A DNA stretch of 61,135 bases from the NCBI GenBank assembly GCA_944358535.1, contig CALVRH010000004.1, forward strand, positions 1 to 61,135, in the 5' to 3' direction. The notes beneath the pieces were generated by a model, which was given only the letters and a program-made list of their open reading frames with translations, was not told where the DNA came from and searched no databases. The position numbers and the translations under genes are program-made. Shown here one piece after another: positions 33,777 through 47,225 of the stretch. Origin of the DNA: an uncultured Bacilli bacterium (GTDB taxonomy: Bacteria > Bacillota_I > Bacilli_A > RF39 > UBA660). Each line of letters opens with the position of its first letter. Positions within the stretch are counted from its first letter, which is position 1.

Positions 33777-34454
33777 TTAATTTAAAACTTTACCAATAAC
33801 TATTAATCTAGACTTCCATGAACCATTACTGCATGTACATAAAGTAATTAAACTATCATCATAACCAATACTTTCATTACTATTTATTAGACTATTTTTC
33901 AAAGCCATATTCATATAACTTTCAAAATCATCTAAAGATTCGAAATTAATTGGTAACTCTTCCTTAGTCGCATCCGCTATATAAACAGCTACAATCGACA
34001 CTTCAATCACTTTATCACTAGTATAAATTTTATAATTTGAATGATTCTTATAAAATTCAAAAGACTTATAATTAAGTAAATCACTAAACATTGTACCGTT
34101 ATTAAAATTATGGCCATATATAATCGTATTCTTATCATTAAACCCATTGTTTCGGTAATCTAAAAATATAGATCCCATTTTATTTCTATCACCATTTGGT
34201 AAATGTTTTAAATAATATGAATTATCCTCACCTTGCATAATTGGATAACTAATACTTGTATCAGGAATCTCAATATAACCAGTAGCTCCTTCATACTCAT
34301 TTTCTAATTTATTTATATCCTTTATATTAGTTGAGGGGAGCACATTTCTATAAAATGTCTCCCCTTCTTTCTTGTCTAAAGACTCCCAAGTAAATAAACT
34401 TAAAAATATTAGACAAATAACTAAACATAATATTACAGGTACTTTTCTAAGCAT
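33777..34454 (-). CDS. srtB: Class B sortase
   Basis: N-terminal TM anchor, NTIIYGHN, and the catalytic TLCTC motif. It overlaps the 3' end of the adhesin gene by 8 nt. Confidence 0.85.
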   Translation of the reverse strand: MLRKVPVILCLVICLIFLSLFTWESLDKKEGETFYRNVLPSTNIKDINKLENEYEGATGYIEIPDTSISYPIMQGEDNSYYLKHLPNGDRNKMGSIFLDYRNNGFNDKNTIIYGHNFNNGTMFSDLLNYKSFEFYKNHSNYKIYTSDKVIEVSIVAVYIADATKEELPINFESLDDFESYMNMALKNSLINSNESIGYDDSLITLCTCSNGSWKSRLIVIGKVLN

Positions 34455-37400
34455 GTTTTCTTTTTAATAAATAAACACTGAGCATTCCAAAAGCTATAGT
34501 TAAAATTCCATAAAGTGACGTATTATCACTACCACCAGTTTGTGGAATATTAGCTTTCTGATATGGTTTTTCAAACACATCTTTGTAATTCATAAATGAA
34601 CTAACATTTCCTTCTAAGCCAATAACTCCACCATCATTAGTAACTGATGTCTTATAACCATCACTATCTGCTTCAAGTTCGGTAACTTTATAGCTTGCTC
34701 CTACTGGTAAACCAATAATCGTAATAGACTCACCATGTTTTAATTTAATTATATCACCAGATTTAATAGTGCCAGTTTTACTTCCAATGTATTTATATTC
34801 ACCTTCTAAAACTTCACCATTTTCATCGTATAATATAACTTTAAAATTAAAGTATCTATCAGTCTCACCACTATTACCACCAACAGTTTTATCGATAGTT
34901 AAACTTCCTTCATTTTTCGTATTCGTAAATACTACCTTGTTTTCGTCAAAAGTAATTTTTCCTTTATCATTAGTAGCTGTAGTTTCATATCTGTCACTAT
35001 TAGCCTCTAACTCTGTAACTTCATATAAAGTTCCGTAAGGAAGTCCATTAATCGTAATCGATTCACCATGTTTTAACTTAATAGTATCACCAGATTTTAT
35101 AAAGCCCTCTTTAGAACCAGTATAATGGAAAGACTCTTCTAAAGGATTGCCATTTTTATCTGTTAAAATAACTTTAAAAGTAAAGTATCTATCAGTCTCA
35201 CCAGCATTACCAGCTACAACCTTACTAATAGTCAAATTACTATCTTCAAGGGTATTAGTAATAGTGTAGTTTTTATCATCAACTGTACTTTCACTACTAT
35301 ACTCTTCATTATAATGTTCTGGTACCGCTTCCTCTATAGTATAATCATAACGATTATGATTTTCATCATATTTAGCTAATCTTTCAAAAGAAGCTTGCCA
35401 ATTATTACTACTACTCAAAGTAACTGATTTCTTTTGACCATTTTCATAAACATAATCATTATTGCGTTTTAAATAAACTGTAATTGAATCAGGTCTATTT
35501 TCATAGTCATTATCATTCCAAACCTTAGTAACATTTATATTAATCATTGAATATTCATTACCAACCTCAAAAGTTTTTACTTGATAATATTGTTCAATAC
35601 TATCTGGATATTCAATTCCATCATTTCCTGGATATACAAAGTAATATACCGTCGTATCTAAAATATAACCATCTACAGTTTTAGACTCAACTAATTTATA
35701 TACACTATCATAATTAATACCACTATAACTAGCATATCCATCATCTTTAGTTTTTAATGTAGAAACTAAATTTTCTTCACCAGTTAACTCAAAAGTATTA
35801 CCACTACCAGTAAAGCCTAATTCATATAAATTAAACTCAACATCAGCAAGTGGTGTATTCTTATCACCATCTTTATATTTATATACATAAATCATTTGTG
35901 AATTTCCTGAAGAAGTAGCTGAGCTTTCTAAAACTTCACCTTTCAAAATCAATTCACTTTCAGCGGAATTTTCATCATAACCAGATAAATTAACTCTATT
36001 AAAAGCATTATCTTCGTTTAACTCTTCGCCAGCACTTAATGTAACTCTAGCCTTATATGTGATTATTAATGATTCACTGTCAGGAACATGAAGCGTTAAC
36101 ATATGAGTCTCTTGATTCCATTCATAACTATCAGGATCTGCAGCTTCACCATTAATCTTTAAACTTCCTCTAATAAATTCTAAAGCTGAACCCATTTCAT
36201 CATCCAAAACTAAAGTGTCAGAATCTTTATCAATATCAGCCTTACCCTCATTAACCTTTATAGTATATTCTACTTCTGGTGCCGTATAAGTATTATAGAC
36301 TGCTGTTTTATCAAGTAACTGAGTAACTTTACCTGTAATAGATTCTTCTACATCTGGATATGTATAACCATTAATTGTAATATTAGCCTTGTTAGTATAA
36401 GTCTTTTGATCAGCAAAAATATCAGTTAACCTGCTATCGTATAAAATAGATGCTCCAGCACTATTCGCACTAAGCTCATCAATATAATCATCTAAATCAA
36501 ATATTAACTTACCATCTTCAAGTTTTGGTTCAAGTTTATAAGGTGTATAAGGATTATAATTTAACACTAATTTTGCAGAGCCTTCCACATATTCCATACC
36601 ATCAGGAATAGTATCTGTTACATAAGTATCCTTAACATCTTTAGGTAACCTATCAATTTTAATCTCCCATCTAGCAATACCTGTTTTACTAAAGTTATCG
36701 CTAAAATTATTCAAATACTTTTGAATATAATTGTCTTTCTTATTATACTCATATTTACCTGTAGATGATTTTCCTTCACCATCTACAGTAACAGTAGATG
36801 TATTATAAAATGTTTTTGATTCACTGTTATCAAATGTCGTATCATAAGAAATATTTAACTCTTTACCTAGTTCAATATTACCAAAATCAATTGTAAATTC
36901 TGTCTTACTTGCATTATATTCTAGCTTAGGATTTGTAGTTTCATTAATAGAAGTATCATTAACTTTTACAGTAGTTACATCTAATGTTAAGCCATCACCT
37001 AAAACATCTTTAAAGGAAACCTTTTTTTGTTTTCCATCGATATTAGGTATTGTTACCTTTGTATTCCAGTGAATAACTCCTTCCCTGTCATCTGCACTTT
37101 TAACATATTTAGAAATAGTTACTCCAGGAACAAGACCAACAGTCGCATCATCAGATACACTATGATTTTCCCCAACATAAATTGTAGCTTCGTTATATAA
37201 CTCAGTTTGTTCACCAGTTGCTTTTGTTTTAAATGTAATTTTGTATACTTTTTGTCCTGTCGCATCTTCTGCAAAAGTATAACCTTTTTGTAACTTATCA
37301 GCTGTAATAGTTAATTCAGAATCATGATAACTAGAACCATTATCATCACTTTCGGTAACTGTTATATCACCTGTAATTTCTTGACCATCAGCAATAACGT

Positions 37401-38562
37401 CTTTTAACGTTACACCTTTTTCTCCCGGTTTTACTGTAATAGTCCAAACTGCAGTATGATCACTAAGATTATCTCTACCATCTTTAGATACATCTGCTTT
37501 ATAAGTACTAACTAACGCAGTAGCTGTAATTTCATTTGGAAGTTCATCACTTTTAACTCTTGCTGTATTTCTTAAATCATTATCAGTAGAGCTACTAATA
37601 AATCCACCATCTAAAACATTGGCTCTATAAGTTATGGTTACGACATCACCTTTATTTAACTTATCAATTGTATAAACAAAGCCAGTTGTTCCATTAATAG
37701 TAGGTTTAATTTTATCAGTCATATCTTGAACATTTTGATTACTATCAGCCTTTGTAATCTTAAATGAATCAGTGATAAGCTCTAAATACTGACCCATTGA
37801 ATCAGTAATGACCACATTGGTATTATCAGTTATCGCAGTTACTTCAACTTTAAACTCATAAGTATCAGTATCAATCTTTTCAACTGATTTATGAATTCTT
37901 AAAGCACTAGTTGGTTTAACATTGATTATAACTGTTCCAACACCAGGAATTTCTAAATCAATCCTACCTCCATCGCCACCACCTATAGCACTTTCAGTAA
38001 TCTCACCTGATACATTTAAAGTACCAGTAATATTACTTAATTTTAAAAACTCTTCATCAGTATACCTAATAGTTACTTGATTTCCAGAAATAGTATAAAC
38101 ACCGACAGCCTCGGCCCCATTTCTTATCACTCCATTTTGGACATTAGTAAATGTAAATCCAGCTGGAAGTTCATAACTAAAAGTATTTTCTGTGGTCCAA
38201 TCTGTTGTATTTGGCAAAGACCACTCTAAATGAATGTCAATAACATCTCCATATTCGACAGTATCCTTAAAGTCTTCATCAACTTTTGTGCCGTCAATAG
38301 TAAAATAACTATTTTCATTCAAATAATCTGCCAAATTATAGTTTCCTACTTCACGAACAAAATGTGAAGTACTTAACTTCTGTATGCCATTCTGGTTAGA
38401 ATTAAATATTGTGTTAATCTGGTTGCCATTAAGAGCTATATTGCTCTCATTTGAAGCCATTTTTAAACTAGGATTATCATGGTTAACTCCAAAATTTAAA
38501 AATAGGCTGACACAAAGTGCTAGTAGTAAACATGCCACCCCTAGACAGTTTTTTACTTTCAT
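34447..38562 (-). CDS. Cell-wall-anchored adhesin with a Cna-type collagen-binding-like A region, CnaB/prealbumin-like B domains and a duplicated C-terminal pilin-like domain
   Basis: Signal peptide. CnaB block VTKVWNDNDYENRPDSITVYL. Two ~110-aa tandem repeats (GETDRYF.FKVIL...KLKHGESITI.GLP). Sorting signal IPQTG (34534-34548) plus a TM segment plus KRKHA. Confidence 0.85.
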   Translation of the reverse strand: MKVKNCLGVACLLLALCVSLFLNFGVNHDNPSLKMASNESNIALNGNQINTIFNSNQNGIQKLSTSHFVREVGNYNLADYLNENSYFTIDGTKVDEDFKDTVEYGDVIDIHLEWSLPNTTDWTTENTFSYELPAGFTFTNVQNGVIRNGAEAVGVYTISGNQVTIRYTDEEFLKLSNITGTLNVSGEITESAIGGGDGGRIDLEIPGVGTVIINVKPTSALRIHKSVEKIDTDTYEFKVEVTAITDNTNVVITDSMGQYLELITDSFKITKADSNQNVQDMTDKIKPTINGTTGFVYTIDKLNKGDVVTITYRANVLDGGFISSSTDNDLRNTARVKSDELPNEITATALVSTYKADVSKDGRDNLSDHTAVWTITVKPGEKGVTLKDVIADGQEITGDITVTESDDNGSSYHDSELTITADKLQKGYTFAEDATGQKVYKITFKTKATGEQTELYNEATIYVGENHSVSDDATVGLVPGVTISKYVKSADDREGVIHWNTKVTIPNIDGKQKKVSFKDVLGDGLTLDVTTVKVNDTSINETTNPKLEYNASKTEFTIDFGNIELGKELNISYDTTFDNSESKTFYNTSTVTVDGEGKSSTGKYEYNKKDNYIQKYLNNFSDNFSKTGIARWEIKIDRLPKDVKDTYVTDTIPDGMEYVEGSAKLVLNYNPYTPYKLEPKLEDGKLIFDLDDYIDELSANSAGASILYDSRLTDIFADQKTYTNKANITINGYTYPDVEESITGKVTQLLDKTAVYNTYTAPEVEYTIKVNEGKADIDKDSDTLVLDDEMGSALEFIRGSLKINGEAADPDSYEWNQETHMLTLHVPDSESLIITYKARVTLSAGEELNEDNAFNRVNLSGYDENSAESELILKGEVLESSATSSGNSQMIYVYKYKDGDKNTPLADVEFNLYELGFTGSGNTFELTGEENLVSTLKTKDDGYASYSGINYDSVYKLVESKTVDGYILDTTVYYFVYPGNDGIEYPDSIEQYYQVKTFEVGNEYSMININVTKVWNDNDYENRPDSITVYLKRNNDYVYENGQKKSVTLSSSNNWQASFERLAKYDENHNRYDYTIEEAVPEHYNEEYSSESTVDDKNYTITNTLEDSNLTISKVVAGNAGETDRYFTFKVILTDKNGNPLEESFHYTGSKEGFIKSGDTIKLKHGESITINGLPYGTLYEVTELEANSDRYETTATNDKGKITFDENKVVFTNTKNEGSLTIDKTVGGNSGETDRYFNFKVILYDENGEVLEGEYKYIGSKTGTIKSGDIIKLKHGESITIIGLPVGASYKVTELEADSDGYKTSVTNDGGVIGLEGNVSSFMNYKDVFEKPYQKANIPQTGGSDNTSLYGILTIAFGMLSVYLLKRKHA

Positions 38563-38778: not shown

Positions 38779-38874
38779 ATAAATAAGCAAAGTCCAAAAG
38801 AGAAACCTTAACGAATTAAAAACCTGATCTCCCAGGTGGGCATCACATCACCAGCTTTAGGATCCTTTAATAAA

Positions 38875-39599: not shown

Positions 39600-40319
39600 T
39601 TACCTCACACTTTCAAATCCTAATTTTTTAATTTCTAAAACATCAACATTATCACCCATATGCATACAAAAAATTCTCTTCCTATCTTCAAAAGCAATTA
39701 ATTTAGCCAAATCATCTAATTGCATATGTGATTTGTAACCATCTGTTGCCACTTCGTGATACATAACTTTAATTTTCTTATCTTTAAACTTCTCTAATAT
39801 TATATCACTTATGGTGCACGTATCGCCACTGTAAAAGAAATTATCATTATCATTAATCACATGATACCCATAACTTGGCATTGGTATAATTTCACCATTA
39901 TCTCCAACATCACCATGCAATTGTTCGTATTCTTTAATATAATATCCTTCAATTTCCTTAGGCGTTTTTACATTATAAAGTTTTTCATCAATACCATATA
40001 TATCTAATAACATATAAGGAAGCCTCTTAATTGGAAATATTATATTCACTTCCCTTACTTTTTTAAATCTTAAATAAAAAACCAAACTGCCCAAACTCCC
40101 AACATGATCACTGTGAAAATGAGTAATAACAATATCAACCCTTTTAATCTTTTCAGTTATAATATTTAACTTTAAAATTTCATGAAAAACGGTTTCTCCA
40201 GAGTCAAACAAAAGTATTTCATCATTTTTTAAATAATAGTAAGCCGAATTATTTACATATTTTGTAGAAAAAGCTCCACCCGTTCCAATAAACTTAAGTA
40301 TCTGTCTCATTCTAACCAC
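39600..40319 (-). CDS. MBL-fold metallo-hydrolase (RNase Z/PhnP/cyclic-nucleotide phosphodiesterase-like)
   Basis: HFHSDHVG (HxHxDH) motif plus downstream His/Asp ligands. 239 aa. It overlaps the upstream gene by 8 nt. Confidence 0.8.
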   Translation of the reverse strand: MVRMRQILKFIGTGGAFSTKYVNNSAYYYLKNDEILLFDSGETVFHEILKLNIITEKIKRVDIVITHFHSDHVGSLGSLVFYLRFKKVREVNIIFPIKRLPYMLLDIYGIDEKLYNVKTPKEIEGYYIKEYEQLHGDVGDNGEIIPMPSYGYHVINDNDNFFYSGDTCTISDIILEKFKDKKIKVMYHEVATDGYKSHMQLDDLAKLIAFEDRKRIFCMHMGDNVDVLEIKKLGFESVR

Positions 40320-41787
40320 CTAGCTTCCTTCTAAGCACTTTAGCCCAACTTATTTCATTCTTATAATTTTGAAGCTTTCCATCATTTATTACATAATCAA
40401 AATCATAATCTCCGCTTGTTTTATAAAGAATTTTTCTATCATCTGATTGATAAATACCGTCTTTTAAAGTTAAACCAAGTTCTAAAATAACCTTTTGAAT
40501 AGCATCTTCATCAAGTGAATGCTCTTTAACCCATTTTGCCTGCCTTGTTGTATCATCATCTCCAACTAATAACTTCTTTAATCTAACTTTTTTAATTGAT
40601 GGGTTGTTTTTTAAAAAATCATTTAACTGTAATGACAGATCAAAACATTCTAAATAATCCGTCAAAGCAATATCGCATTTTATATTTCCATTTCTAAATA
40701 ATAAACTCTTTAAATAATCATCACTATATCCAAGTACCTTCATATCAACATCAGAATTTAATGCTACTCTGAGAATTTCAAACTCTAGCGGTAAATCAGT
40801 AAGATTAAAAAGGCTAAATTTGTCTTCATCACTAAATATATTACCTGAAGAATGTACCCTAACTATTTCAAACAAATTTCTATATTTGATTAAACATTCT
40901 TTTATTAATTTTAAATCATCTAAAGAATAAAACGATGGTTCTCCATTTCCACTGAGAACAAACCTTTTAAATTTTATATCATTTTCCAAAAGCTCCTTTA
41001 AAATTTCATCCAAAGATTCTAAATTATCGCAGGTAGAAAACTTTTGATTATTTTTAGCAATACAATATGGACAGTTTTTATTGCACATATAGGAACCTAA
41101 AATTAATGTCAAATTATTAAAATATACAAAGTCATTATTTAAAATTCCAACTACTTTATCTAAGACCTCATTCTTAGATAAATTTGTAGTATCGATAGTT
41201 TGGGTAAAATCATATTTTTCCCAAAAACCACTATCTTTTTCTTTTTGATCACGTTCCTTTAATTTTTTAAAAGTAACTTCATAATTCTCGCCATTCATCA
41301 ACATTTTTCTTTTAACTCTCTCGTCAAAATCAGTTTCTAAAAAAATATGATAATCTACTTCTGGATAAGCCACAACTGGTCTTCTCGCATTAAGCAAAAC
41401 ATTACTTTCACATTTTAAATCATCCACTATACCTCTTAAAGCTTCATTTAAAGAATCACCGACAATTGATCCAACCATCACTGTATCCATATTCATTTTT
41501 GGAGTATTTAAAACCTCAGAACTATAAAAATTACCATTAATCCCTACTTCTACTTTATTACAGATAATTTTATAAGTAAGATCAATCTGTTGCAGTTTTC
41601 CACTTAAAATGAACTTTCTAATACCATCTTCATCTAAAGATAGTTCGTTTATTAAATAATAAGTAAGTGGTCTAAATAAAAAACCAAAATCAAAATAGAT
41701 TAACTCATTACCCCTTTTTAATAGCTCTTCACTTATAGTAGTTTTCCCACTTCCAGAATAACCACTAATTGCAATCACCTTATACAT
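40312..41787 (-). CDS. Fusion protein: N-terminal cytidylate-kinase-like domain (~aa 1-215) plus a C-terminal radical SAM domain (~aa 225-491)
   Basis: P-loop GYSGSGKTT, FDFGFLFR (compare Cmk LDTGAMYR), NARRP...IFLETDFDERVKRK and KERD blocks aligning with Cmk. CNKNCPYC (CxxxCxxC, about nt 41062-41085), SGNGEPS, and a C-terminal YVINDGKL motif. Confidence 0.8.
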   Translation of the reverse strand: MYKVIAISGYSGSGKTTISEELLKRGNELIYFDFGFLFRPLTYYLINELSLDEDGIRKFILSGKLQQIDLTYKIICNKVEVGINGNFYSSEVLNTPKMNMDTVMVGSIVGDSLNEALRGIVDDLKCESNVLLNARRPVVAYPEVDYHIFLETDFDERVKRKMLMNGENYEVTFKKLKERDQKEKDSGFWEKYDFTQTIDTTNLSKNEVLDKVVGILNNDFVYFNNLTLILGSYMCNKNCPYCIAKNNQKFSTCDNLESLDEILKELLENDIKFKRFVLSGNGEPSFYSLDDLKLIKECLIKYRNLFEIVRVHSSGNIFSDEDKFSLFNLTDLPLEFEILRVALNSDVDMKVLGYSDDYLKSLLFRNGNIKCDIALTDYLECFDLSLQLNDFLKNNPSIKKVRLKKLLVGDDDTTRQAKWVKEHSLDEDAIQKVILELGLTLKDGIYQSDDRKILYKTSGDYDFDYVINDGKLQNYKNEISWAKVLRRKLGG

Positions 41788-41951
41788 ATTTCCTCCTCCA
41801 ATTTAAATGTATCACAAATTAAACTGCCAGAAAAATACCAATAATTTATACAAATATAACTAATAATCATTCATATAAAAAGTTTTTAAAACAATATACT
41901 TTCTAGTAATTGCCATTAAAAAAAGTAATAAAAAAATAACATTTTTTCATG

Positions 41952-42845
41952 TTATTTCAAATATTCATCTATAAAACGTCTAGGTGCTTCAGTTAAATTT
42001 CTTTCTTTACATATTAAATTCAAAGATATTTCAGGGAGTTCCTCGTATATTTTTATCTCTTTTAAATTACCGCATTCAATATCACTCTTAACCATATCCC
42101 TCAAAATATAACCTATTCCAAGGCCTTTTTTTACCATACTATAAATAAGCTCACTTGTTTCTATCGAAAGAACATTATTGAAAATAGTATTGTTTTCTTT
42201 AGCCAAATTATTTAAATATTGTCTATGTGAGCTATGAGAAACCGGCAATATTAATGGTAGTGATTCTAAATCTTTTAAATGATATTTTTCTCCTTTAGGT
42301 AAAATATTTAAATCAGGCAAAACTATAAAAGTATGCGTAAAAGTATCTAAAGGTTTTACATCAAAACCATCTAATTCATCTTTTGCCGAAACAGAATCCA
42401 AAACAAAATCAAGTTCATTATTAGAAAGCATTCTAAGTAACTCACTACTAGGCCTATCAATAATAACAATATCAATCTTATTATATTTTTCGTGAAAAGT
42501 CGCAATCTTATCAAGTAAATAAAATGAAGCCACATTAGATCTTACACCAATAGATAAAGAACCCTTTTCTAAATTCTTATTTTCCATCATCTTCTTCTCT
42601 GCTTGTCTAAAATTTCCTAAAGCTTCTTCTACTAACCCATATAGTTCCTTACCTTTATCAGTTAAAATAATACCATTTAAGGTTCTATAAAACAGCATTG
42701 CATTAAGTTCGCTTTCTAAATTTTTAAGTGCTTTACTTATTGCCGGCTGTGACAAATACATATTTTTTGCAGCATCTGAAATACTATGATATTGTGCAAC
42801 TTCATAAAAAATTCGATATAAATTTAAATTGATATTCTTATACAT
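41952..42845 (-). CDS. LysR-family transcriptional regulator
   Basis: N-terminal wHTH (SISDAAKNMYLSQPAISKALKNLE) plus a LysR substrate-binding domain. 297 aa. Confidence 0.9.
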   Translation of the reverse strand: MYKNINLNLYRIFYEVAQYHSISDAAKNMYLSQPAISKALKNLESELNAMLFYRTLNGIILTDKGKELYGLVEEALGNFRQAEKKMMENKNLEKGSLSIGVRSNVASFYLLDKIATFHEKYNKIDIVIIDRPSSELLRMLSNNELDFVLDSVSAKDELDGFDVKPLDTFTHTFIVLPDLNILPKGEKYHLKDLESLPLILPVSHSSHRQYLNNLAKENNTIFNNVLSIETSELIYSMVKKGLGIGYILRDMVKSDIECGNLKEIKIYEELPEISLNLICKERNLTEAPRRFIDEYLK

Positions 42846-44504: not shown

Positions 44505-44535
44505 ACAAAAAAACTATAACTAAATCGTCATAGTT
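44505..44535 (-). terminator. Probable terminator after ttcA
   Basis: AACTAT-12 nt-ATAGTT followed by TTTTTTT on the minus strand. The stem is short and AT-rich. Confidence 0.4.
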
Positions 44536-45331
44536 AATATTTATCCAAAAAATTATGTTTTATATCATCTTCAAAATACGTTATCACTTTATCAAGTTTC
44601 ACATTACTTAAAGAATTAAAAACATTCCTATCTGCATCATCATAATATTTTTTTAATACTTTTATGAGATTTTTCATCTCTTTTCGCTTGCCAGTATTTT
44701 TCAAAGTCACACTACACGCACAATCGATAAACGATAAATCATTATATTTTACCCAATTTAAAATACTCTCTTCACGAACTAAATAAAGTGGCCTAATAAG
44801 TTCCATACCATCAAAATTATCACTCTTAAGTTTTGGCATCATTCCAGCATACATTCCATTATAAATTAAATTCATCAAAATAGTTTCCAATGCATCATCA
44901 AAATGATGACCCAAAGCAATTTTATTACATCCAAGTTTTTGCGCATAACTATATAAATAACCTCTGCGCATTTTCGCACATAAATAACAAGGATTTTTCT
45001 CATTACTAACCACTTTAAAAATTGAACTATCAAATATATGAGCCTTTATATTTAAAATATTTAAATTAACCCTTATCTTATTCAAAACCTCATCAGTATA
45101 ACCTGGGTTCATAATAATATATTCTAAAGAAAATTTAATTTTTCCATGCCTCTGCAACTCTTCTAAACATTTAGCCATTAAAAACGAATCTTTACCACCA
45201 CTAATACAAACAGCTATTTTATCATTTTCGTTAATTAATTTATAATCGGTTATCGCTTTAACAAACTCATGCCAAATAGAAGGTCTAAATTTTTTTATAA
45301 TGCTTCTTTCAATTTCTTTGTATTTTTCCAA
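44534..45331 (-). CDS. ttcA: PP-loop ATPase, TtcA-like tRNA 2-thiocytidine biosynthesis protein
   Basis: SGGKDS PP-loop, CYLCAKMRRG, and Cys motifs. 265 aa. Confidence 0.8.
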   Translation of the reverse strand: MEKYKEIERSIIKKFRPSIWHEFVKAITDYKLINENDKIAVCISGGKDSFLMAKCLEELQRHGKIKFSLEYIIMNPGYTDEVLNKIRVNLNILNIKAHIFDSSIFKVVSNEKNPCYLCAKMRRGYLYSYAQKLGCNKIALGHHFDDALETILMNLIYNGMYAGMMPKLKSDNFDGMELIRPLYLVREESILNWVKYNDLSFIDCACSVTLKNTGKRKEMKNLIKVLKKYYDDADRNVFNSLSNVKLDKVITYFEDDIKHNFLDKY

Positions 45332-45332
45332 T

Positions 45333-46259
45333 TTAATGCCTCATTAAAGAATTTTCTTTATAAACTTTTATTTTCTTTTTACTATCAAAACGTGCTATAT
45401 CTTGAACCGCATCATCAAGATCATGAAGTCCAACTAAACTCTCACTAATATGACTAGCAACAGAATCAATAAAATGTGATGAAGAAATATATTCCTCACA
45501 CAAATCATCACTATAAGTTTGTAATTCAGAAACAGGAGACTTTAAAGCTTTTTTAATTTCTTCAAAATCAATACTATCCATAAATATTTTCTTATTAAAA
45601 GCTTTACTACACTCTGGCGATAAAAAAGTTTTTCTAATTGCCTCTCTATATTGATCAATATATTTATCTTCATCATCAGTCTCACCAAATATATCAATCA
45701 ATTCAGCAATCACCTCTCTTACGCAATCGCCACTATATTCAGATGGATAAATTGCTTCATCTATCTCATCAATCGTATATATAGGTTTTTTTATAAAACA
45801 GTCTTCTAACCCATTATTATCTATCTCACCAATAAACATGGTATTAGTAATATCACAAAGGTGATTATCATAAGTAAAAGTTTTAGAAGAAATTATTGAA
45901 TTTAAAGTAGCAAAACCCCCATAAAGAAAAACATCTCTCATATCATGTACTAAAATAATCCCTCTATAGCCCTGACGATTATTTTCAATAAATAATCTCG
46001 AAAAAGCATTATAAAGTACAAACGGTTCTACCCCCTGTGGTGTGAATAATCCAGAAATTCCAACCAATGGTATATTCATCTTATGAGCAGTTTGCTCCAC
46101 CATTGTTGTTTTACCACTACCAAGTTCTCCAACCAATAAAATATTTTTAGGATGAGATAATTTCTTATTACGATCTATCGTCCAAACCAATTCTTTCAAA
46201 GCTTTATCTTGATTACAAAGCAAATCACATAAATCATTATATACATCTTTTACTTCCAT
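45333..46259 (-). CDS. ClpX-like AAA+ protein, paralog B (degenerate Walker B and sensor 2)
   Basis: NQDKALKELVW...KNILLVGELGSGKTT aligns with ClpX (GQE.AK..L...KSNILLIGPTGSGKT). GIILVHDMRD stands in place of hhhhDEID. There is no zinc-binding N-domain. Confidence 0.6.
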   Translation of the reverse strand: MEVKDVYNDLCDLLCNQDKALKELVWTIDRNKKLSHPKNILLVGELGSGKTTMVEQTAHKMNIPLVGISGLFTPQGVEPFVLYNAFSRLFIENNRQGYRGIILVHDMRDVFLYGGFATLNSIISSKTFTYDNHLCDITNTMFIGEIDNNGLEDCFIKKPIYTIDEIDEAIYPSEYSGDCVREVIAELIDIFGETDDEDKYIDQYREAIRKTFLSPECSKAFNKKIFMDSIDFEEIKKALKSPVSELQTYSDDLCEEYISSSHFIDSVASHISESLVGLHDLDDAVQDIARFDSKKKIKVYKENSLMRH

Positions 46260-46277: not shown

Positions 46278-47225
46278 TTAATTCTTATGTGAAACTAACA
46301 AAGAACCCTTTTTTAACACTTTTTCATTATTTTGATAATCGCGAGAAACAACTTCTTCAATCACCCTTGATGCTGAATGTAAACCTTCCCCACTTTCCAA
46401 AACATAATAAGCAATCTTTTTAATAAAGCTATCGGAATTAATATACTCCTCTGTCAAATCATTTCTATATAAATTTAAAACTGACAAAGGAGAATTAATA
46501 GCTTTTATTATATTATCAGTATCCATATCATCCATATAAATTTTGGTTTTAAAAACTTCTTCACAAGTAGATGATAAAAATCTATATTTAATTTGATCAG
46601 CCATATACTTTTCAAATCTCACATTAACACTTTTATTACCACTTGAATCTATATGTACCTCATTAGCCTTAGTCAAATATTTTTTTACCATATTTAATGT
46701 AGGAGAAACAAAATTATCACTATCTAAATCTGACAAATCATCCATACTAGACATAAAAATATCTCTAACATTATTAATATCTATCTCACCAACAAAAGTT
46801 ATACTAGAAATATCATAATATCCTTCATCTCCAAGATCTATTATTCCAGAAGCCAGCATACTATTAAACCACATACTATGTCCATATAAAAAGCAATCTT
46901 GAAAATCATGTAATAATAAAACGCCTCTATCAGTTCCGTCACCATTCATCATCATTTTGTAAATTCCACTTAAAAATAAACGTGAATTTATACCATTAGG
47001 AGAAAATAAATTATAAATCTCTCCTAATGGTATATCCATTAATTCAGTAATTTCTTTTAGCATCGTAGTTTTACCTGAACCACGCTCGCCAATCAGTAAA
47101 ATATTTTGTTTAAAATTCATTTTCAAATCAAAATTTTTATAAAGTACCCAAACTAATTTTCTAAGTGCTTCATCCTGTATACCTATATTATCTTTTAAAA
47201 GTTCATAAAATAATATCTCATTCAT
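46278..47225 (-). CDS. ClpX-like AAA+ protein, paralog A (degenerate Walker B and sensor 2)
   Basis: GIQDEALRKLVW...QNILLIGERGSGKTT, GVLLLHDFQD, and C-terminal SGEGLHSASRVIEEVV (compare ClpX TGARGLRSIVE). Confidence 0.6.
   Translation of the reverse strand: MNEILFYELLKDNIGIQDEALRKLVWVLYKNFDLKMNFKQNILLIGERGSGKTTMLKEITELMDIPLGEIYNLFSPNGINSRLFLSGIYKMMMNGDGTDRGVLLLHDFQDCFLYGHSMWFNSMLASGIIDLGDEGYYDISSITFVGEIDINNVRDIFMSSMDDLSDLDSDNFVSPTLNMVKKYLTKANEVHIDSSGNKSVNVRFEKYMADQIKYRFLSSTCEEVFKTKIYMDDMDTDNIIKAINSPLSVLNLYRNDLTEEYINSDSFIKKIAYYVLESGEGLHSASRVIEEVVSRDYQNNEKVLKKGSLLVSHKN

Follow-up and report, generated by a model that had tools for sequence, protein, structure and literature searches.

What does a nucleotide kinase do when it shares one polypeptide with a radical enzyme? 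The question is raised by a gene in the 61,135-nucleotide (nt) window analyzed here, which is the whole stretch taken from contig CALVRH010000004.1 (assembly GCA_944358535.1) of an uncultured Bacilli bacterium. The gene encodes a domain similar to cytidylate kinase (Cmk) followed by a radical S-adenosylmethionine (SAM) domain. An earlier note, made from the sequence alone, read this arrangement as a physical fusion of the logic of CMPK2 and RSAD2 (viperin), in which a CTP-like substrate is channeled directly to the radical enzyme. The analysis points elsewhere. The reading that we favor, with a probability of roughly 0.55, is that of a bifunctional nucleotide enzyme, composed of a nucleoside monophosphate (NMP) kinase of the Cmk fold and a radical SAM domain, and encoded in an operon with a metallo-β-lactamase (MBL)-fold protein and a CYTH-like protein. 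It belongs to neither the viperin nor the Ophion family and would represent a new case of kinase-coupled nucleotide radical SAM chemistry.

One uninterrupted open reading frame (ORF) of 491 codons spans positions 40312-41787, with the Cmk fold in residues 1-218 and the radical SAM domain in residues 225-491. A search of 5.8 billion proteins identified 57 homologues, of which approximately 45 are full-length (484-509 aa) and share 50-93% identity with the fusion; none of the 57 carries a functional name. The orthologues come from independent assemblies (NCBI, ENA, JGI and Logan), and they include two long-read chromosomes from uncultured Bacilli/Candidatus Coprosoma, the hifiasm chromosome OZ007022.1 and the circular metaFlye chromosome OZ007038.1. 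In an alignment of 40 sequences, the domain junction is short and conserved, and the catalytic motifs are invariant in both halves. The length of the linker is kept, and a conserved NNLTLILGSY strand comes next. The pairwise ratios of nonsynonymous to synonymous substitutions (dN/dS), calculated for each half separately, were 0.12-0.30, and purifying selection acts on both halves. Thus, the single-chain fusion claimed in the earlier note is genuine. It is also rare, being carried by only about 12 of 185,579 species genomes, and no Cmk-radical SAM fusion was described in the literature searched.

The two halves were also found apart. In some Clostridia metagenome-assembled genomes (MAGs) and metagenome contigs, Cmk-like, radical SAM and CYTH-like genes are separate neighbors (L035, L110 and L113; loci are labeled L and proteins P). 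In L036, a CYTH-Cmk fusion is followed by a radical SAM gene and then by a gene similar to the second CYTH gene of the window. This natural series of fusions and fissions argues for a functional coupling of the kinase and the radical SAM enzyme.

Profile and structure comparisons both placed the N-terminal half in the Cmk family. The Pfam model Cytidylate_kin (PF02224) aligned with residues 5-216 over nearly its whole length (positions 1-209 of 211) and scored 48.9 bits, against a cut-off of 26; the family profile matched solved Cmk structures along their entire length (1q3t, E 5.5e-14; 2h92, E 1.1e-13). When the AlphaFold model was compared with Cmk structures using Foldseek, the template modeling (TM) scores, normalized to the target, were 0.70-0.83; those for the enzymes from E. 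coli, S. aureus, Mycobacterium and Thermus (entries 1kdo, 2cmk, 4die and 3akc) were 0.78-0.83. The model also contains the Cmk-specific insert of the NMP-binding domain, with strands at residues 70-83. Adenylate, thymidylate, uridine-cytidine and dephospho-CoA kinases reached TM scores of at most 0.63, and the kinase half is therefore not a better fit to an unrelated P-loop family, a doubt that the earlier note itself had raised. Two further candidates for this half were discarded as P-loop-only matches, namely AAA_18 (25.3 bits) and a guanylate-kinase PHROG limited to residues 1-27. The motifs that the note had listed in its block-by-block comparison with Cmk were all recovered: GYSGSGKTT (residues 9-17), FDFGFLFR (32-39), NARRP (133-137), DERVKRK (155-161), KERD (177-180) and DTTNLSKNEV (199-208). 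The same holds for CNKNCPYC (235-242) in the radical SAM half.

The catalytic machinery and the base pocket of the kinase differ in how they have been conserved. All 40 sequences carry the same phosphoryl-transfer residues, namely K15, R39, R135, R157, R160, R179 and E183. When the domain is aligned with 1kdo by HMMER, R39, R135, R179 and E183 correspond to R41, R131, R181 and D185 of the E. coli enzyme, and R157 and R160 correspond to its lid; the P-loop lysine and the phosphate and lid arginines of E. coli Cmk (K18, R41, R131, R157 and R181) are retained. The residues that recognize cytosine in E. coli Cmk are reportedly S36, R110, D132 and R188 (the PDB entries 2fem and 2feo, from a mutational study, are R188M forms of this enzyme). 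The equivalent of S36 is an invariant phenylalanine, F34; position 114, the counterpart of R110, holds N, T, S or I; D132 faces a gap or the invariant R136; and S, N or G stands at position 186 in place of R188. Since all four cytosine-recognizing residues have been replaced, a CMP or CTP substrate is not implied, and the CTP-like substrate of the earlier note was not borne out. We infer that the domain is an active NMP kinase with altered acceptor specificity, whose base pocket has probably been rebuilt and whose acceptor is probably not plain CMP.

For the C-terminal half, the Pfam model Radical_SAM (PF04055) gave 29.2 bits against a cut-off of 29.5 over residues 233-311 of the fusion; the cut-off is passed by the relatives P0052 (33.6 bits), P0055 (35.4), P0095 (32.9) and P0097 (33.8). 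The CX3CX2C cluster motif and the SGNGEPS motif, which we take to be a "GGE"-type SAM-binding motif, are both unchanged in all 40 family members. Modeled on its own by AlphaFold from 39 sequences, the domain displayed six beta-alpha units in a partial TIM barrel, with a predicted local distance difference test (pLDDT) score of 92 and a predicted TM (pTM) score of 0.89. All of the top 26 Foldseek matches in the PDB were radical SAM enzymes. The identity of the domain is secured by these invariant motifs, the confident barrel model and the Foldseek matches. The best structural match was MoaA (2fb2/1tv7, E 2e-7, query-normalized TM 0.60-0.62), followed by EpeE, NosL, HydG, HemN and anSME. A name derived from structure was rejected, as the PDB and BFVD gave generic matches only (TM at most 0.62).

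Several other positions of the domain are invariant across the clade to which it belongs, including D348, Y354 and W419 and the basic residues K237, K245, R310 and K404, the latter four being candidate phosphate-binding residues. No further cysteine is conserved clade-wide, so that a second (auxiliary) cluster is not expected. The resemblance to MoaA consists of the structural match and of a weak best HMM match for some clade members (P0095 and P0097, moaA at approximately 22 bits against a cut-off of 284). It differs from MoaA in the low identity of 12-13%, in having one cluster and in the absence of molybdopterin genes nearby. We predict AdoMet radical activity for the C-terminal domain, which has a MoaA-like core and comes from a small unnamed clade. 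Near its end lies the motif DYVINDGKLQNY, which the earlier note placed at the very C-terminus and likened to the C-terminal motif of viperin. The motif is present, but at residues 464-475, ending 16 residues short of the C-terminus. It is conserved across the clade as xVxYGGxLxDY, with G459, D464 and Y475 invariant, and no viperin alignment extends this far; it is a signature of the clade instead.

The fusion is the predicted first gene of a translationally coupled three-gene operon, in which 1 nt separates its stop codon from the ATG of the MBL gene, and 2 nt separate the stop codon of the MBL gene from the start of the CYTH-like gene. The MBL protein matched PDB structures over its full length in phmmer searches (7fct, E 2e-27; Apyc1 7u2r, E 3e-17, residues 8-226). 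Its Pfam matches were Lactamase_B_2 (38 bits) and Anti-Pycsar_Apyc1 (PF23023, 41.7 bits, cut-off 50). Bacterial Apyc1 homologues cleave cyclic nucleoside monophosphates broadly (Hobbs et al. 2022, PMC9117128). The MBL gene resembles Apyc1 in this full-length alignment, but it is chromosomal and operon-linked to the kinase and radical SAM domains rather than a phage anti-defense gene, and PF23023 stays under its cut-off. The CYTH-like protein 2 matched NCBIfam cyaB at 38.7 bits (cut-off 57.95) and had no match in Pfam. Its signature reads ELEIC in place of ExExK, and NEVTL in the split-type orthologues, where the second glutamate has been lost too. Based on the scores below cut-off and the incomplete signature, it is treated as CYTH-like only.

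The composition of the operon was compared across loci. The MBL gene directly follows the fusion in L001-L007, L010-L011 and L030-L034, and the three-gene unit is kept in every locus with the fusion and its close orthologues (at least 50% identical), whatever the flanking genes. More distant forms have swapped the phosphoesterase, for NUDIX in L008 and L035 and for PHP in L110. The kinase and the radical SAM enzyme are retained in these three loci, and the CYTH-like gene in all except L008. Orthologues of CYTH-like 2 come after the radical SAM gene in the fused and split forms alike. We conclude that the kinase, the radical SAM enzyme and the CYTH-like protein form the conserved core, accompanied by a phosphoesterase whose fold varies.

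A profile search of 1.84 billion cluster representatives identified only 272 proteins of the clade of the radical SAM domain at E <= 1e-3, and a word-indexed search returned 382 protein clusters. None of the best 120 of these 382 clusters has a functional name; their source names, where one is given, are "organic radical activating enzyme", "4Fe-4S cluster-binding domain-containing protein" and "hypothetical protein". No curated family covering the clade reaches its cut-off in NCBIfam, Pfam, PADLOC or PHROGs, and a tblastn search with the radical SAM domain gave no match in GenBank phage genomes. The members occur in gut MAGs of Bacilli, Alphaproteobacteria, Clostridia, Gastranaerophilales and Tenericutes, and on some viral contigs. 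Some are fused to other domains: a MazG/PRA-PH-like domain (phrog_6408, 80 residues) at either end of P0052-P0057, and nucleoside 2-deoxyribosyltransferase-like domains in P0100, P0111 and P0116. Neighboring genes encode NUDIX, PHP, calcineurin-like phosphoesterase, Ham1, NMNAT-like, CofE-like and SerRS-core-like proteins. The clade appears to be specialized for a nucleoside or nucleotide substrate. We give somewhat less than an even chance to the more specific proposal of a new nucleotide-directed radical family, independent of viperin, that forms a conserved triad with a dedicated Cmk-derived kinase and a CYTH-like protein, complemented by a swappable phosphoesterase, and makes a new modified nucleotide or nucleoside.

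Other branches of the clade have arrangements of their own. Loci L039-L087 (e.g., L047:4401-6816, L051 and L059), from gut Alphaproteobacteria, Bacilli, Clostridia and Gastranaerophilales MAGs, contain stand-alone members of approximately 273 aa in conserved operons with the order PnuC-family transporter, nucleoside-2-deoxyribosyltransferase-like gene, radical SAM gene. NMNAT-like, Ham1, CofE-like and calcineurin-like phosphoesterase genes and a divergent LysR gene are often added. This unannotated cluster possibly serves nucleoside salvage; radical SAM genes with PnuC and a deoxyribosyltransferase were not described in the literature searched. In a third subclade (L088-L094, L096 and L099; e.g., L091:5977-7332), proteins of approximately 451-471 aa have a C-terminal nucleoside-deoxyribosyltransferase-like domain; the gene comes after PnuC, and the divergent LysR upstream is 33-36% identical to the LysR of the window. 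On viral or phage-like contigs (L012:3707-8724, L016:5748-7474 and L019), the MazG/PRA-PH-like part is either fused to the radical SAM protein or a separate gene of 83 aa, followed by a SerRS-core-like protein of 223 aa. L012 contains three consecutive radical SAM genes, one of which is 28% identical to the viperin-like gene of the window. A 296-aa P-loop neighbor of the stand-alone radical SAM genes (cluster c2) had been taken by eye for a CYTH-kinase fusion, a reading that was dropped because hhalign gave the CYTH part a probability of 0.6%.

The bifunctional reading can be spelled out as a scheme, in which the nucleotide nature of the substrate, the order of the steps and the product are suppositions. 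The phosphodiesterase and the kinase would set the phosphorylation state of the nucleotide, the kinase raising an NMP to the diphosphate (NDP), and a cellular NDP kinase would provide the triphosphate (NTP). The radical SAM domain would perform one radical step on the nucleotide, most plausibly on the ribose, as MoaA and viperin do. MoaA is the GTP 3',8-cyclase and acts on the ribose of a nucleoside triphosphate. The CYTH-like protein could bind or process the triphosphate end of the substrate or product, and the phosphoesterase could act on the phosphate end of either.

A number of points weigh against this scheme. Cmk-type kinases yield a diphosphate, not a triphosphate, and an enzyme that uses an NTP would need another kinase. 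The full-length AlphaFold model (pLDDT 86) has no confident arrangement of the two domains; its pTM is 0.57, as compared to 0.89 for the radical SAM domain alone, and a fixed interface is therefore not predicted. Thus, the direct channeling proposed in the earlier note, which had suggested an AlphaFold model to look for a shared interface, finds support neither in the modeled structure nor in the kinase product. The match to MoaA is weak, with a TM of 0.6 and 13% identity, and it owes most to the radical SAM core that both share. Guilt by association is the basis for the assignment to nucleotides. CYTH-like protein 2, whose signature is missing the ExExK lysine, may be non-catalytic and bind rather than cleave. 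Finally, it is hard to see why one operon should hold both a cyclic-nucleotide phosphodiesterase and CYTH, a possible cyclase.

Which pathway such an enzyme would serve can be seen in more than one way. A role in metabolism is possible, although we lean against it: small-genome gut bacteria would use the operon, controlled by LysR, to salvage or convert a nucleoside or nucleotide micronutrient or a cofactor precursor. In this reading, the kinase would trap or activate an imported or recycled nucleotide, which the radical SAM domain would then remodel. A PnuC-family transporter (Pfam NMN_transporter, 129.6 bits) is found in 54 of the 105 clade loci that were fetched, beside nucleoside-deoxyribosyltransferase-like and radical SAM genes, and NMNAT-like, Ham1, CofE-like and metallophosphoesterase genes are often alongside. 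LysR genes flank two distant radical SAM subclades as well as the operon of the window, and the hosts are the gut bacteria listed above. However, the Cmk-fused subclade has no transporter nearby, the LysR proteins are only 33-39% identical, which is compatible with chance adjacency in a huge family, and the gene set matches no known pathway.

Defense against phages would be analogous to viperin or similar to Ophion, with a chain-terminating or otherwise toxic nucleotide produced upon infection and with the phosphoesterase and the CYTH-like protein providing self-protection or activation; we regard this as unlikely, but far from negligible. Ophion is a defense system that consists of the non-viperin radical SAM protein OpnA, the PHP protein OpnB and the phosphoribosyltransferase (PRTase) OpnC (bioRxiv 10.1101/2025.09.30.679545). 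It sets a precedent, being a small operon with a non-viperin radical SAM protein, a phosphoesterase and a nucleotide enzyme, and the split form L110 has a PHP gene. On the other hand, Ophion comes from Gammaproteobacteria and has a PRTase but no kinase or CYTH protein; OpnA and the clade were compared by description only. In approximately half of the loci the fusion operon adjoins a viperin-like and CYTH gene pair. Its distribution is rare and patchy with different flanks in L003, L006, L007, L008 and L010, the radical SAM domain has relatives on viral contigs, and locus L015 has a SIR2 gene nearby. Against these observations, PADLOC gave only weak matches to the P-loop and the cluster-binding loop, and no classic defense genes were seen in the flanks within the window. 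The GC content of the cluster (26.6%) equals that of the window (27.4%), and the cluster is syntenic and vertically conserved in the Coprosoma-like lineage. LysR and, in the wider clade, the PnuC transporter are marks of metabolism.

Viperin is the classic radical SAM editor of a free nucleotide for immunity, with the link to a nucleotide kinase as its hallmark. That the fusion is a true viperin-type synthase of ddhCTP (or ddhNTP), joined to a CMP kinase that supplies a CTP-like substrate, would agree with the domain order of kinase and then radical SAM, and a viperin-like gene is located only two genes away. Both the linkage and the fusion of viperins to kinases are documented, and a CYTH-type domain, described as "triphosphatase or cyclase", is fused to some eukaryotic viperins (Shomar et al., bioRxiv 10.1101/2023.09.13.557418). 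PADLOC even has a model for pVip-kinase fusions (PDLC02905), and viperin models do match the cluster-binding region of the fusion. Yet these matches are approximately ten-fold below cut-off: NCBIfam viperin_w_prok (NF038283), with a cut-off of 180, reached just 17.9 bits and covered no more than residues 234-297, and PADLOC pVip reached 19.9 and 15.8 bits, in the cluster-binding loop only. The same models gave the neighboring viperin-like gene 128.4 bits (NCBIfam, under the cut-off) and 133.5 bits (PADLOC). PDLC02905 had no match to the fusion at E <= 0.01, whereas its viperin half matched the neighboring gene at 77.8 bits.

No viperin chain appeared among the best 50 Foldseek matches to the radical SAM domain, where MoaA, EpeE, NosL, HydG, HemN and others were found; the PDB sequence set does contain such chains. 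An hhalign comparison with the neighboring viperin-like protein gave a probability of 82%, but over the generic N-terminal 126 columns only, and no HMM or profile alignment to viperin extended beyond domain residue ~157, leaving the C-terminal third unaligned. Membership of the radical SAM half in the viperin family was thus rejected by NCBIfam, PADLOC, hhalign and Foldseek, and with the cytosine-recognizing Cmk residues all lost, a viperin-type synthase is very unlikely. Among viperin-associated kinases, the majority are relatives of CMPK2, an NMP kinase that is phylogenetically distinct (Shomar et al.), whereas the kinase of the fusion is of the bacterial Cmk type (PF02224). The likeness consists of a nucleotide kinase paired with a radical SAM enzyme, adjacent or fused, and of CYTH domains on eukaryotic viperins that parallel the CYTH genes at this locus; the differences are the type of kinase and a radical SAM domain that falls under every viperin cut-off and is structurally nearest to MoaA. 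We conclude that the fusion is analogous to viperin and not a viperin homologue, the likeness being convergent. Of the CMPK2-RSAD2 logic in the earlier note, the pairing of a kinase with a nucleotide radical enzyme survives as an analogy, but the homology fails.

It is highly improbable that the kinase is a mere housekeeping Cmk, fused without any meaning for a pathway to an unrelated radical SAM protein, for example an activase or an enzyme that modifies RNA or protein. Such a fusion would have parallels in the NCBIfam models for bifunctional Cmk/Der and PanC/Cmk proteins, both of which appeared as weak matches, and no second cmk gene was seen in the 61-kb window. Nevertheless, the domain scored only 46.5 bits with the NCBIfam equivalog TIGR00017, under the cut-off of 135.55, and its cytosine-pocket positions have been replaced. 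Eight stand-alone relatives of the kinase domain were found in the 5.8 billion proteins, four of them with 40-43% identity. The two of these four whose loci were read, P0232 and P0229, each immediately precede a radical SAM gene that belongs to this clade; P0234, which is 33% identical, is not beside such a gene and adjoins a Mur ligase gene. Because the near stand-alone relatives with loci read sit upstream of this radical SAM clade, the kinase is likely dedicated to the pathway and not a housekeeping Cmk. The independent fused and split arrangements with CYTH genes and the rarity of the fusion also argue against a housekeeping role. Last, a sequencing or assembly artefact or a decaying pseudogene that joins two ORFs, for which the separate genes in some Clostridia (L035 and L036) might be cited, can be dismissed on account of the ~45 full-length orthologues, the two long-read chromosomes, the conserved linker with its following strand and the dN/dS values of both halves.

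The coordinates of the fusion gene, its parts and its neighbors are summarized in Table 1.

Table 1. Positions of the fusion gene, its domains and motifs, and the adjacent genes in the window.
Feature	Position	Strand	Remark
Fusion gene, Cmk-like kinase and radical SAM	40312..41787	minus	Intact 491-aa ORF, ATG start
Putative Shine-Dalgarno sequence GGAGGAGG	41792..41799	minus	5 nt before the fusion ATG; read from sequence
Cmk-fold NMP-kinase domain, residues 1-218	41134..41787	minus	Pfam PF02224, PDB Cmk matches, Foldseek
P-loop G9-T16 (GYSGSGKT)	41740..41763	minus	G9, G14 and K15 invariant in 40/40
Radical SAM domain, residues 225-491, unnamed clade	40315..41115	minus	Domain model, MoaA best PDB match
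CX3CX2C cluster motif (C235, C239, C242)	41062..41085	minus	Invariant in 40/40 fusions and the wider clade
SGNGEPS, residues 279-285	40933..40953	minus	Invariant across alignments A1-A4
DYVINDGKLQNY, residues 464-475, C-terminal beta-hairpin motif	40363..40398	minus	Strands modeled
MBL-fold protein, predicted phosphodiesterase of the Apyc1/RNase Z type	39600..40319	minus	Likelier start ATG 40310
CYTH-like protein 2, 191 aa	39022..39597	minus	NCBIfam cyaB, below cut-off
LysR-family regulator	41952..42845	minus	Pfam HTH_1 63.8 bits, LysR_substrate 102.5 bits
Viperin-like radical SAM protein, 250 aa	42861..43613	minus	Separate neighbor, not part of the fusion
CYTH protein 1, 197 aa	43564..44157	minus	Pfam CYTH 26.9 bits, cut-off 23.2

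The genes for LysR, the viperin-like protein and CYTH protein 1 are present upstream of the fusion and on the same strand in the window and in approximately half of the orthologous loci, and LysR is found in most of the loci that also have the viperin-like module. The best PDB matches of the viperin-like protein were the viperins 9dfu, 6b4c, 7n7i and 5vsl; the protein is approximately 30 aa short at its C-terminus. The gene for CYTH protein 1, a canonical CYTH gene, overlaps the viperin-like gene by 50 nt, and its product matched the triphosphate tunnel metalloenzyme (TTM) proteins 1yem and 7ns8 in the PDB. Homologues of CYTH protein 1 (52% identity) directly follow radical SAM genes of the clade in Clostridia (L037 and L050). 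Thus, the window holds two parallel modules of radical SAM and CYTH (and kinase), one of which is of the viperin type and the other not. The bacterial pair of viperin-like and CYTH genes parallels the viperin fusions to a "triphosphatase or cyclase" in eukaryotes.

Between LysR and the fusion operon, an AT-rich inverted repeat at 41929-41956 on the minus strand (AATAACAT, a 6-nt loop, ATGTTATT and then a run of T) overlaps the LysR stop codon and could end LysR transcription before the operon. There is a single G-C pair in the stem, and the repeat was not among the calls of the terminator scan. That scan returned one terminator-like site, at 38822-38837, and the promoter scan yielded fewer promoter-like sites than in shuffled sequences; both scans are uninformative in DNA of 27% GC.

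Further genes surround the operon. Downstream, at 34447-38562 on the minus strand, lies a gene for a secreted protein of 1371 aa with internal repeat modules, at the end of which a sorting-signal-like IPQTGG motif precedes a hydrophobic tail; L001 has this gene too, whereas L002 and L004 lack it at the same position. Upstream, an intact TtcA-like PP-loop gene of 265 aa is located at 44534-45331. In the 93%-identical locus from OZ007022.1 (L001:3127-4970), this gene is truncated to 192 aa and followed by a 402-aa ORF that resembles the IS200/IS605 TnpB protein by eye only. Directly upstream of the TtcA-like gene are tandem ORFs of 308 aa (45333-46259) and 315 aa (46278-47225), both on the minus strand, the former with weak AAA-type Pfam matches limited to the P-loop. 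The Coprosoma-like loci L001, L002 and L005 share this conserved pair.

With regard to what the fusion means, a second, unrelated radical SAM lineage has independently gained the partners of viperin, namely a kinase, by fusion or adjacency, a CYTH protein and a phosphoesterase, the fold of which shifts by lineage between MBL, PHP, NUDIX and calcineurin-like. This pattern provides strong comparative evidence for new nucleotide chemistry in gut bacteria that are abundant yet uncultured and in some of their phages. That the fusion stands for a new family of enzymes, with an equally new product, is a proposal we hold tentatively, judging its chances to be not quite even. The rebuilt base pocket of the kinase would show how the specificity of Cmk can be re-engineered. 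The fusion protein is small and soluble, and a definable panel of substrates makes the question directly testable. If the proposal is true, candidates for the product include an antiviral chain terminator, a signal for the adjacent LysR regulator and a salvaged cofactor precursor of small-genome gut bacteria.

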